Origin: Eledone cirrhosa
Lineage: Eukaryota
Direction of reading: 5' to 3'
Length of the DNA: 64,000 bases
Assembly (NCBI GenBank): GCA_964016885.1
Contig: OZ024756.1
Location: forward strand, 38,254,001-38,318,000
The position numbers and the translations under genes are program-made. The notes under the pieces were generated by a model, which saw only the letters and a program-made list of their open reading frames with translations, made no database searches and was not told the origin of the DNA. Below are positions 2,400 to 60,896 of the stretch, piece after piece (position 1 is the stretch's first letter; the number at the start of each line of letters is the position of its first letter).

Positions 2400-2606
2400 G
2401 GTCGCAGTACATGCGCAATGCATGCAACTGCAGTTTTAAGCAGCCCCACTGGTAGCACCTATTCAGTGCATAAATTCTCTGAAAGGAAAAATACTCGCCA
2501 TATTGGACAGACCTATATATATATATTTTTATATATATATATATATTTATATAAATATATATATATATATATATTATATATCCTTGTAAAAATGTTTTAA
2601 CGAAAG
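2400..2606 (+). promoter_or_regulatory. Candidate promoter 1 and non-coding first exon of the miRNA host transcript
   Basis: Unique CpG-containing sequence with an NRF1-like ACATGCGCA (2409-2417), an Inr-like TCAGT (~2463), a YY1-like CGCCATATT (~2496) and a strong donor AAG|GTAAGG at 2607. Confidence 0.45.
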
Positions 2607-3139
2607 GTAAGGCACACTGTTGATATTATATATTACACTTAGATTTTGAATTTATCTCCGAACACATTCAACAAATTATTTTCTCGCATTCGTTGCAATT
2701 GTATAAGTTAAAAAAAACTCCAACCATTGAAATATTTTCTCAAACATTTTATTTTGACGGACCCTTTAAAAAACAATTAGTTCCTATATACCATATAGTA
2801 CTTTTAGTATCAGTAAGTACTTAGTTACAGATTTTTTTTCTTTTCTCCTCTTTAGAAAATTCAAATATTTTTCTCAAATATAAACTTCACCATTAGTCGA
2901 AATAACTATTTTCTGTCGCTCCTCTTGTTATTTTTGTCACTTTGAAAAGTTTTTCCCATTTTTTGAAACATTACCACAACTACATTTTTTTCTCTCTTCC
3001 CTCTAAAATATATTTAGTTTTACAATACTTTAAACTTATAAGCATCTAATTAGCCACGGGCAATTGCAACAGGCGATAGATAGATTTACACATTCTAGAT
3101 TTAAATTTTTCTACATTTTCAGCAGATTTTCTTATTTAA

Positions 3140-3548
3140 AGAGTGGAAGTGATAGAAAACCTGCTATTCGAGGAAGTGGTCTGATAGAAGCACATGCGCA
3201 GTTATTCTCGTGTTCGCATTCTTTCACTAGCTTTTGCAGTCATATTATTTGTTGTATTAAAAACTTATATTTAATTATTTAATCTAAGAATTAGCATTTT
3301 ACATCCTCAATACATATATATATACATATATATATACATACACACATGTATATATATAATATACATATCAAATTATGCTTTAGAGTTTTCTTTAATAAGT
3401 CGCAAACGTTTACTGAAACGCCTCCTAATATCCCCGACCACACACACACACACACGTCTTTGCCGCCGTGTCATATGATTGCTGTTTCAAATCTTCATGA
3501 AGATCTACCACTTTAAAGAGATGTTGTAAATTACTGACCATATACACA
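3140..3548 (+). promoter_or_regulatory. Candidate promoter 2 and alternative non-coding first exon
   Basis: Two ETS-like GGAAGT (3145, 3172), an NRF1-like ACATGCGCA (3192-3200), CpG-containing unique sequence and a donor ACA|GTAAGG at 3549; only short uORFs upstream of the donor. Confidence 0.4.
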
Positions 3549-3824
3549 GTAAGGACTTTTCTAAGAGTATATATACACACACGCGCGCACACATATATAT
3601 ATTGTTTAGATTTTACCATTTTGATAACTATCATAATGGTAAAAGCTTAACAAATGGACACAAAATCCTTATAATATCTCTGTATAGAATATTAAGTTGA
3701 ATAATCGTCTCAACTAGTAACATCTATCTCTCTCTCTCTCTCTCTCGCTCTCTCTCTCTCTCTCTCTGTATATATATATATATATATATATATATATATA
3801 TATATATATATATATATATATATA

Positions 3825-3935
3825 ATGTGTCTCCCAGGAGAGGGATAGGCTTTGCTAGGTTTAAATTGCCCAAGACATGCGCTGTATGTCGCGACAGCGC
3901 CCCCTATAACTCCATCAGGAGTTATGGCCCCATGG
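3825..3935 (+). repeat. Unclassified interspersed repeat (other copies ~33165-33255, ~60385-60455)
   Basis: Shared TTTAAA-TG-CCAAGACA...AACTCCATC sequence in three places, with a small hairpin TAACTCC-ATCA-GGAGTTA in this copy. Confidence 0.55.
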
Positions 3936-3950
3936 ATGGATGTGATAATT

Positions 3951-58115: not shown

Positions 58116-58312
58116 CGGCGGTGGATTGGCGGTATCAGTAGAAGGTCGGACGCCATGCTCTGCAGCAAAGAGTTACGGTCCTTGCCATTCTGAGTTCAAA
58201 TCCCGCCGAGGTTAGCTTTGCCTTTCGTCCTACAGGGTCGATAAAATAAAGTACCAGTAATACATTGGGATAATTGCTGGCCTTGTGCCAAAAGTAGAAA
58301 CAATTATTATTA
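58116..58312 (+). mobile_element. SINE family A
   Basis: Complete copy flanked by (ATT)n. Confidence 0.85.
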
Positions 58313-59851
58313 TTTTCAGGTAGAGTGCCTTGTGGTATTTATTCTGACTCTGTACACTCTAAATTCAAATCTTGCCAAGTTCAACTTAGCTTTTCATCCC
58401 CAGAGTAGGTGATTGGGGGTGGGTCAGGAGTAAAAAAAAAAAGTACCAGTTAAATGCTGGAGTTGATTCACTTCCCCTTTCGCCAACATTGTTGGTTTGG
58501 CGTTGAAATTATAATCATTAATAATATACATACAGCATAGAGTTATGGCCCTTTACGTTATGTCTTCAAATCGCGCCATGGTTAGCTTTGCCTTTCATCC
58601 TTATGGGGTCGATAAGATAAAGTACCAGTCACGCACTGGGGTAATTGCTGGCCTTGTGCCTAAAGTAGAAACGGTTATTAATATACACGCGTATATATAT
58701 ATATTAACAATATTAATAAATGGAAAATATCATTTATAATACCATATTATAATATATTAATATTAATAATACTCCAGATCAAATTTGTAGTGTTTCAAAT
58801 CTGTTATAAAAATAACTTTGTTGAATGATAATCAACAAACTATATAACTCATTGTTTATATATATATATATATATATATATATATATATATATAGAAAGA
58901 GAGAAAGTAACAATGGTTAATGTCACAGAAAAAGTAACACATGTGTAACCTGTTAATTCAAGTGAAGATATGCTTCTTATTTTTTTCTTAAAAAAAAAAT
59001 GTTCTTGTAATTTATTACGAAGATCTCTATAATTAAGCAAAAACTAAAATCTATTCTAGATTCTATAAAAGTATAAGTTTGGAGAATTATCTCTCCTTCC
59101 CCCCAAAAATGTTTTCGTAAAAATGCCGTTAGTTGATGTCATTTATAAGCGACATCGTTGTAACCTCAATTGACTGTATGTAGAATATACAGGGTGCCCC
59201 CCTCCTTTAAATGGCTGCTTTACCATTTAAGCATTTTTAATGACTTTTTTCTATTTTTATTTTATTAATTTTTTAATTTTAATTTAATTTTATTTTTTTT
59301 ACTGTTCAGATGTTGAAAAATATGTAACTGGAAATTAAATTGGCAGAGATGTTAGAACATCTGTTAGATGTTAGAATGCTTGTATTGTTCTGGCTATCTC
59401 TGCTATAGGTTCAAATTCTGCTGGGGTCTCTTTTTCAAAATAAATAAATAGACTATCATCAGTCCAGTAAAGGGGTTGATTCTTCCTCTTTTCCGTTATT
59501 AATTTCCAAGTAACAGTTTTTGTGGGGGGGTTGTTTTTTCTTTCAAAATCTGAAATAAAAATAAAAAATAAATTAGGATTGGTTTCAGAAAGTCAGTACA
59601 ATTCAAGTTAGTAATAATTAGAATATACATATTCTAGCTATGATAGCAGGGAAAATGGACATTAAATGATGTTGATGTTATAGGAGTTGATATTAGAATA
59701 GAGTAAGAGAAAACAACAGTTTCTAAGTTTACTTTATATTTTTTTATGAGAAATATAGAGTGATGGGGAGCTGAACTTGCACTCGAATTTTCACTCCTGT
59801 ATTTCTAAATTTGTGATCTCAATGCTCTAACCACTAAGCCACACATTTCTA

Positions 59852-60120
59852 AATGTGTGACTTAGGGGTTAGAGCATTGGGGGATCACAATCGTGAGGTC
59901 ATGAGCTCAATTCCTTGACTTGGGAAGTCTGTTGTGTCCACTTTATCCCATGTTTGTCCAGTTCACTCAGCTAAAAAAATGTGCTGTAATATACATCACT
60001 GGTGCCAAACTGTATCATCCTTTACCTTCTCCTTGGGCCACACTGGTGGCATATAGAGGGGAGACTAGTTTGTATGTATGGGTGATTGCTGGTCTTCCAT
60101 ATAAACAACTTTCCCCAGGC
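59852..60120 (+). mobile_element. tRNA-derived SINE (family B-like head), degenerate
   Basis: GACTTAGGGGTTAGAGCATTGG...GAGCTCAATTCC; preceded by a short inverted head fragment at 59812-59848. Confidence 0.55.
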
Positions 60121-60813
60121 TGTGCCTCAGAGAACTTTCTAGGTGTAAACCCATGGTCATTTATGACTAAAAGAAGACCATATAAATTTCTAAAATAAGT
60201 CAACAAATTGGCAAAGTTGCTTTCTGCACTCCAGGTTGAAATCCTGCCAATCTCTATTTTATCTTTTATCTTTTTGGGGATCAATAAATAAGCTATGAGC
60301 CCATTACTGGGGTCGATCCTTTCTCGATTTCTCTTTCTCTGGAAGAAATTGTCTGTATTTAGACCTAGAATCTAATGGTCTCCATCACATTTAAAATGTC
60401 CAAGACATTATTTTACTGCAGTGTTCCTTACAACTCCATCAGCAGCTACAAGTTCATGCATGCATTTTTTAGTTTGTATTGTACCAGCTTCCCCCAAACA
60501 ATCCTACCCATATATTTCACTGCTTTATTTAAAAGATATAGTATTGTTTAAAGCTAACATTTTTTTTGTTAATTTTTAAAAATAAAGTCATTTATGGGCC
60601 ACTCTGTATATCGATATGGCTGGAGATGTTATTTTTTTTTCTCTTTGTCTCCCACTTTTTTTTAATCCTTCTAAATTTTTATATAATTAAACAAACAAAC
60701 AACTCACCATTTTCTTTCCCCATTCTTACACACACACACACATACACACATATATGTGTGTCTGTGTGTGTGAAAATACTCCTAAGCTGAGAACGAGAAG
60801 AAAACGTTTATGA

Positions 60814-60896
60814 TCCCAGACTGAGGTAGTAGGTTGTATAGTTAAGAAATACACCATTTCAAGGAGGACTGTACAACCTTCTAGCTTTCCCTGGGG
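60814..60896 (+). ncRNA. let-7: pre-let-7 microRNA
   Basis: Exact mature TGAGGTAGTAGGTTGTATAGTT at 60822-60843; star CTGTACAACCTTCTAGCTTTCC at 60869-60890; basal stem CCCAG/CTGGG; CNNC (CAAC) ~17 nt downstream of the 3p arm. Confidence 0.99.

Follow-up and report, generated by a model that had tools for sequence, protein, structure and literature searches.

Introduction

[quoted passage not shown] Four transcription starts have been mapped for MIR100HG, and promoters tens to hundreds of kilobases distant are common among primary microRNA transcripts (pri-miRNAs; PMC4561498, in excerpt). Here, we describe the let-7 cluster of the octopod Eledone cirrhosa and its probable host gene, starting from a window of 64,000 nucleotides (contig OZ024756.1, 38,254,001-38,318,000, forward strand) of a 3.0-Gb genome.

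In Drosophila, the let-7-Complex likewise holds three microRNAs in one locus with a spliced non-coding primary transcript. It covers ~17 kb, with 3 exons and a large first intron, and a figure legend places all hairpins in the second exon (bioRxiv 10.1101/2021.07.16.452600, in excerpt). Among Lophotrochozoa, Capitella and Platynereis have a single cluster in ancestral order; clusters of this group are described as tightly linked, and mir-125 is reported missing in Lottia (PMC3384580, in excerpt). The MIR-10 family takes in both mir-100 and mir-125 (PMC11701709 and PMC5204344, in excerpt). In Octopus vulgaris, Ovu-Mir-10-P2 and Ovu-Let-7 are annotated and expressed, with 2,544 reads for Mir-10-P2-5p in one supplement row and broad let-7 expression in non-neuronal tissues (PMC9699675, in excerpt). 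The passages and supplement text of that study on which we draw contain no host-gene or cluster description and no Mir-10-P3; its annotation may already hold the host transcript. Our literature search turned up no publication that describes such a host gene in a cephalopod.

An original prediction, made from the window, had proposed a single non-coding host gene of ~58 kb. We examined the window together with the 200 kb before it and the 600 kb after it (864 kb in all). Positions are given in the frame of the window, with negative values to its left and values above 64,000 to its right. We find it probable that the cluster belongs to one long plus-strand non-coding unit that starts from a transposon-free island reaching over the left end of the window. 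A long unit with a distant start is supported by a CpG-depleted, T-skewed domain, by the lack of CpG-rich sequence near the hairpins or the candidate exon at 46827, and by a conserved, motif-rich island.

Results

The let-7/mir-100 cluster is real. The let-7 hairpin (60816-60894, plus strand) matches Rfam family RF00027 at 58.6 bits, above the gathering cut-off of 53.5, and its fold has a z-score of -4.66. A 16-nt let-7 pattern has three matches in the genome, only one of which, at 60816-60894, forms a good hairpin; the other two do not fold and were rejected as let-7 hairpins. The mir-100 hairpin, a member of the mir-10 family (56129-56199, plus strand), matches RF00104 at 43.7 bits (E = 1.6e-9), below the cut-off of 47.5. 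Its seed is intact, and midway along the 5' arm three positions depart from the Rfam consensus. The fold is modest (z = -2.0 on 73 nt; -0.6 and -1.2 on longer cuts), and a pattern taken from the 5' arm matches once genome-wide. Mir-100 lies upstream of let-7 on the same strand, with 4,686 bp between the 5' arms, which bears out the predicted plus-strand pair 4.7 kb apart.

Two other features lie between these hairpins. A near-perfect hairpin at 59811-59890 (plus strand, -48 kcal/mol), 1 kb before let-7, resembles a repeat-derived fold-back and not a microRNA. AATAAA words at ~56480, just past a candidate acceptor at 56396, could mark an early poly(A) site; the sequence downstream of them is A-rich and not GU-rich.

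A likely mir-125 hairpin lies outside the window, at 92,660-92,725 on the plus strand (L003:8660-8725). It emerged from a relaxed-seed hairpin scan, in which 13 of the 65 CCCTGA sites on the plus strand of the 864 kb passed the hairpin filter. Two sites fall between 56 and 100 kb, and one of them, at 92,665, is a clean hairpin. It has a 5' A, and its 5' arm carries the miR-125 seed and 3' motif, with two extra bases between them. The fold (z = -5.3 and -4.5) is better than all 200 shuffles, and the hairpin is single-copy in the genome. It stands 31,843 bp past let-7 on the same strand, and the three hairpins follow the ancestral order mir-100/let-7/mir-125 over 36.5 kb of one strand. These features make it a likely, diverged third member of the cluster.

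Two points weigh against this assignment. Rfam yields no match at the hairpin, even at E<=10, and the name mir-125 is therefore based on its sequence, its position and its order in the cluster. A gapped pattern of seed and 3' motif finds this hairpin as its sole match in the genome and none in controls, for a pattern composed after the hairpin had been seen.

Other searches for mir-125 were negative or uninformative. An exact pattern has no match in the genome, a second pattern has one match, on a different contig and without a clean hairpin, and a one-mismatch pattern has 150 matches, fewer than the 346 of its control. Rfam found no mir-125 over 150 kb downstream, nor did a seed scan demanding 5' T or C. 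A search with the Rfam lin-4 family likewise returned none, but its control also failed, which makes the result uninformative. Loss of mir-125 from the cluster had been our first reading, and was dropped after the relaxed-seed scan returned the hairpin at 92,665.

The surroundings of this hairpin are repetitive. Its 3' flank (L003:8715-9060) is a degenerate tandem array of several repeats that starts within the 3' end of the hairpin, and a transposase fragment (L003:6974-7168, plus strand) lies 1.5 kb before it. Between let-7 and the likely mir-125 there is also a long unique hairpin of -29 kcal/mol (L002 ~1221-1300; 75,221 in the window frame).

A CpG-depleted, T-skewed domain extends over the plus strand from 8001 to 64000 and continues to ~94,000. 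In unique sequence, the observed-to-expected ratio of CpG (o/e) is 0.21-0.23 and the T-A skew +0.03 to +0.08 over 8-95 kb, as against 0.80 and 0.00 at -200 to -45 kb. A finer profile in 2-kb bins never exceeds a CpG o/e of 0.5 from 8 to 94 kb, and reaches 0.6-1.1 from 94 to 108 kb. The right edge of the domain is 1.3 kb after the likely mir-125, and the domain was measured before that hairpin was found. T exceeds A throughout the domain (z 2.4-7.9), and the skew is negative over 92-264 kb. In that interval the minus strand carries exons for AMP deaminase and an Ig domain, convergent with the host domain, which provide a control for the sign of the skew.

This composition is what a single methylated gene body would be expected to leave behind, and the domain is likely the body of the host gene. 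Stretches of 2, 5 and 10 kb upstream of each hairpin and of the candidate exon at 46827 contain no CpG-rich unique sequence (o/e 0.07-0.31). The predicted span of ~58 kb is not supported, as the domain extends as far as the likely mir-125 at 92,665 and stops close to 94 kb; the host unit is likely ~90 kb or more. Two considerations temper this conclusion: the cumulative skew is maximal at 81 kb and then flat to 105 kb, and germline methylation would hide a tissue-specific promoter from a test based on CpG.

The unit appears to be non-coding. None of 150 open reading frames (ORFs) from -50 to +3.3 kb reached the Pfam cut-off, and the 150 longest of 264 ORFs over 4-94 kb gave one Pfam match, a transposase fragment, in tests that are blind to short or family-less exons. 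The ORFs of at least 120 amino acids in the window resemble repeat read-throughs, as judged by eye.

The transposon-free, promoter-like island spans -6084 to 3952 on the plus strand (1-3952 within the window). This 10-kb segment is the longest stretch without interspersed repeats in the 864 kb, and it likely holds several transcription starts and alternative 5' exons. The CpG-depleted domain adjoins it with its left edge. The original prediction had recognized a promoter-like zone of unique sequence at 2.4-3.5 kb; its uniqueness holds, but its extent was underestimated, since it forms the right end of this larger island.

The island is rich in particular motifs. It contains 6 of the 24 unmasked copies of CATGCGC/GCGCATG (p = 5e-7), and, of 8,188 7-mers ranked for enrichment in the island, CATGCGC is the top one apart from poly-A words. 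Forward AAGATGGCG words number four in 464 kb, two of which are in the island (-3700 and -1982). We take the former motif to be NRF1-like and the latter YY1-like; calibration of these labels on neighbouring genes failed. CpG o/e is 0.43-0.77 per 2-kb bin over -4 to +8 kb versus ~0.2 downstream, and AATAAA occurs four times on the plus strand versus 17 times on the minus strand. Splice sites, scored with a generic matrix, are numerous: six plus-strand donors score at least 4 (-4083, -3743, -1258, -719, 2607 and 3969), and very strong plus-strand acceptors occur at -5087, -4858, -3564 and 2856. Together, these donors and acceptors suggest a complex 5' region.

Two non-coding elements of the island are conserved. 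Four sequencing runs of related organisms were aligned on 1400-4300, two of which yielded only short low-complexity pieces. Contigs of the other two align on the first element (2321-2505, plus strand), with 9 other letters and 3 gaps; it lies upstream of the donor at 2607 and carries an NRF1-like motif at 2409-2417, and 2406-2448 is without a listed difference. The second element (3092-3244, plus strand) aligns in the same two runs with 15-17 other letters and 7 gaps, and its NRF1-like motif (3192-3200) also falls in a segment without a listed difference (3188-3206). These alignments suggest that both elements are under sequence constraint, with the NRF1-like motif unchanged in each.

Several observations weigh against the island as the promoter of the unit. 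The NRF1-like cluster cannot be calibrated as a promoter mark: the only comparable cluster in the 864 kb has 3 copies, at 261-262 kb, and a literature search on such clusters in molluscs found nothing useful. CpG is retained only in part (0.57 overall), the AATAAA deficit is mild by Markov expectation (4 vs 9), and strong donors show no clear plus-strand excess within the island (4 vs 2). The two aligning organisms share nearly all their differences, and thus amount to one comparison; their runs are only guessed to be RNA, with no silent control. The search for sequencing runs listed no RNA of Eledone cirrhosa itself; 21 of its 24 rows come from other organisms, at a share of 0.06-0.08, and are guessed to be RNA, which is no evidence on expression. 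The contigs cannot show transcription starts, and their uncovered parts prove nothing. Finally, the region from -38 to -6 kb is likewise CpG-low with a positive skew. With CpG only partly kept in the island and already low before it, an earlier promoter may precede the island.

The main start might instead lie further upstream, in a CpG-rich block at -45 to -38 kb, in which case the gene would be ~135 kb long and the island would supply internal alternative promoters or exons. CpG o/e is ~1.0-1.1 at -44 to -38 kb and then ~0.2-0.4 in most bins to -4 kb. The skew is +0.116 at -45 to -40 kb (AATAAA 1 vs 8) and +0.054 at -40 to -6 kb (AATAAA 22 vs 40). The very strong acceptors at -5087, -4858 and -3564 require upstream donors, and the Pfam test of ORFs from -50 kb found no coding exon in this region. 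Conversely, AATAAA words at -6027 and -5930 could terminate a separate upstream unit, a CpG bump interrupts the low region at -24 to -16 kb, and exon-like sites occur on the minus strand at -42.8 kb and -5.5 kb. Because the island keeps CpG only in part and follows a CpG-low, positively skewed region behind a CpG-rich block, we give this upstream start a little less than an even chance. It extends the reading of one long host unit and does not exclude it.

A different view is that the island belongs to another unit: an upstream plus-strand gene might reach into it with a long 3' end or with unspliced RNA, or it might be the promoter of a minus-strand RNA. The microRNAs would then arise from a nearer promoter not seen here. 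Transposon-free, T-rich, AATAAA-poor sequence would also suit a long 3' exon, contigs of relatives lie on either side of the donor at 2607 without a joint, a strong minus-strand donor is present at -2666, and human MIR100HG has downstream starts (PMC4561498, in excerpt). Yet CpG survives in the island and is depleted to either side of it, the opposite of what would follow from the 3'-end methylation that octopus genes are reported to have (PMC9476566). Nor is there a CpG-rich block between 8 and 94 kb, the skew is positive on either side of the island, and no coding gene was found within 50 kb upstream. We consider this view unlikely, and retain the island as the probable starting region of the host unit.

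Two minus-strand features in and before the island could reflect antisense or divergent RNA. One is a very strong donor in the L021:7334 region (-2666), and the other a high-scoring non-coding exon-like segment at L025:7190-7345 (-42810 to -42655).

The splice sites of the predicted exon chain all exist. AG/GT boundaries are present at 46827-46876 and 55679-55738, with an acceptor at 56396 and donors at 2607 and 3549. Among the 4,636 GT dinucleotides on the plus strand of the window, 55739 ranks 1st as a donor, 2607 4th, 46877 11th and 3549 150th; among 3,631 AG dinucleotides, 55679 ranks 22nd as an acceptor, 56396 37th and 46827 44th. The 60-nt segment 55679-55738 (plus strand) is a likely internal exon: it has the best plus-strand donor of the window (sum 15.0), is unique, and lies 0.4 kb before mir-100. 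The 50-nt segment 46827-46876 (plus strand) is an average candidate in unique sequence (acceptor 4.7 + donor 6.3 = 11.0). A candidate acceptor past mir-100 (56394-56396, plus strand) would place that hairpin within a 657-nt interval from the donor at 55739. At thresholds fitted post hoc to both small exons, these two are the only loci on the plus strand of the window versus 11 in 13 control 64-kb strand-blocks, a modest excess. A branch-point motif is present at one of five acceptors, which is uninformative.

How these sites would be joined is less clear than the original prediction had it. In its exact form, the ~58-kb gene would have its first exon or exons end at 2606 or 3548, splice over 43-44 kb to 46827, and continue to 55679 and 56396. 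The strong donor at 2607-2612 (plus strand), downstream of a conserved element, and the place of the two small exons at the top of the window at their own thresholds are in keeping with such a chain. Its first intron fares badly. The acceptor at 2856, 249 nt from the donor at 2607, scores 11.1 versus 4.7 for 46827 and is a nearer candidate partner. The other proposed donor, 3549-3554 (plus strand), is weak and doubtful (score 2.0 versus 5.3 at 3969), and is not among the six stronger plus-strand donors of the island.

Exon-like loci inside the proposed intron also compete with 46827-46876. At looser thresholds the window has six plus-strand and two minus-strand loci. Of the four other loci that fall within this intron, three outscore 46827-46876: 34479-34575 (acceptor 9.8 + donor 6.0 = 15.8), 12454-12586 and 39360-39462, all on the plus strand. 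The locus at 12454 shares a 160-nt, 93% duplication with 8156, and this duplication flanks a 31-bp satellite. Contigs of relatives contain no splice joint at 2606 or 3548 over 1400-4300, where reads are cut at a TA repeat before 2607; none of the contig loose ends listed (24 of 142) falls at either position. One 918-nt contig seemingly continues unspliced to 4238 across 3549, a weak observation with a 26-letter side. With a compositional domain that extends to 94 kb, the exact chain is improbable. What stands as likely is a single non-coding host gene with a promoter more than 50 kb from the hairpins, as argued by the CpG and skew domain, the absence of a nearer CpG-rich block, and the island.

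Repeats and neighbouring genes complete the picture of the locus. The proposed long intron contains satellites at 8853-12080 (31 bp x104), 12899-14244 (61 bp x22) and 21698-25171 (48 bp x73), and the 48-bp satellite yields spurious 700-amino-acid frames. A single 5S rRNA-like copy at 7123-7241 (plus strand, 74.7 bits) has several broken closing-helix pairs and is probably a dispersed pseudogene. Upstream by 132 kb, a LINE-type endonuclease/reverse-transcriptase frame of 832 codons lies on the plus strand (L034:7503-9998). The downstream neighbours on the minus strand are an Ig-domain exon (L010:2554-2910) and three AMP deaminase exons (L015-L016), one of which has its best matches in Octopus and Argonauta, at 86%.

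Discussion

We propose the following model for the host unit. The island, ~50-60 kb upstream of mir-100, would offer RNA polymerase II several start sites, with perhaps a further one near -40 kb, and the polymerase would traverse at least ~90 kb. Splicing would join small exons such as 55679-55738, so that mir-100 comes to lie in an intron of 657 nt, while the three hairpins would be cut out by Drosha as the RNA is being made. Transcription of some human non-coding pri-miRNAs ends by cleavage at the last hairpin, and a similar event could end it here shortly past mir-125. If the gene body is methylated in the germline, CpG would be lost between 8 and 94 kb as observed.

A more elaborate scenario can be drawn from the same locus. 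The octopod let-7-Complex may have been stretched to a multi-promoter non-coding gene of 95-135 kb that independently mirrors the spacing of MIR100HG, with methylation like that of housekeeping genes over its body, as far as an end set by Drosha just past mir-125. The two members of the miR-10 family would have diverged beyond the seed, and mir-100 could be released without let-7 and mir-125 through a premature poly(A) signal near 56,480. Taken as a whole, we hold this scenario to be rather unlikely.

Close parallels are the two human loci, which carry the same three families in the same order as the Eledone cluster with its likely mir-125. The gap from let-7 to the likely mir-125 is 31.8 kb here, compared with 46 and 50 kb in human (PMC3384580, in excerpt), and placement of the hairpins in introns would be a further likeness. 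The human structure was mapped by RNA-seq, RACE and H3K4me3, whereas ours is inferred from composition. In human, a downstream start serves miR-125b-1 alone; in Eledone no CpG-rich block precedes the likely mir-125. Unlike in human, mir-100 and the likely mir-125 have diverged outside the seed.

The fly and lophotrochozoan clusters differ in scale. The Eledone hairpins are spread over 36.5 kb, in contrast to the single exon that holds those of the fly, and the unit would be at least five times longer than the Drosophila complex (bioRxiv 10.1101/2021.07.16.452600, in excerpt). As in Capitella and Platynereis, there is a single cluster in ancestral order, but it is stretched where lophotrochozoan clusters are described as tightly linked (PMC3384580, in excerpt), and its likely mir-125 escapes Rfam and exact patterns.

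Distant and multiple starts and a long gap before mir-125 are already established in humans, and the present model is thus a good annotation and not a new mechanism. What is newly seen here is a unique, diverged and Rfam-invisible likely mir-125, 31.8 kb past let-7. That such a hairpin is missed by standard models is a caution for claims of molluscan loss. If the model is true, the extent of a non-coding gene in octopods can be traced by its depletion of CpG, and the locus would provide testable limits for the primary transcript, together with a 10-kb candidate control region, of a developmental-timing microRNA cluster in a cephalopod.

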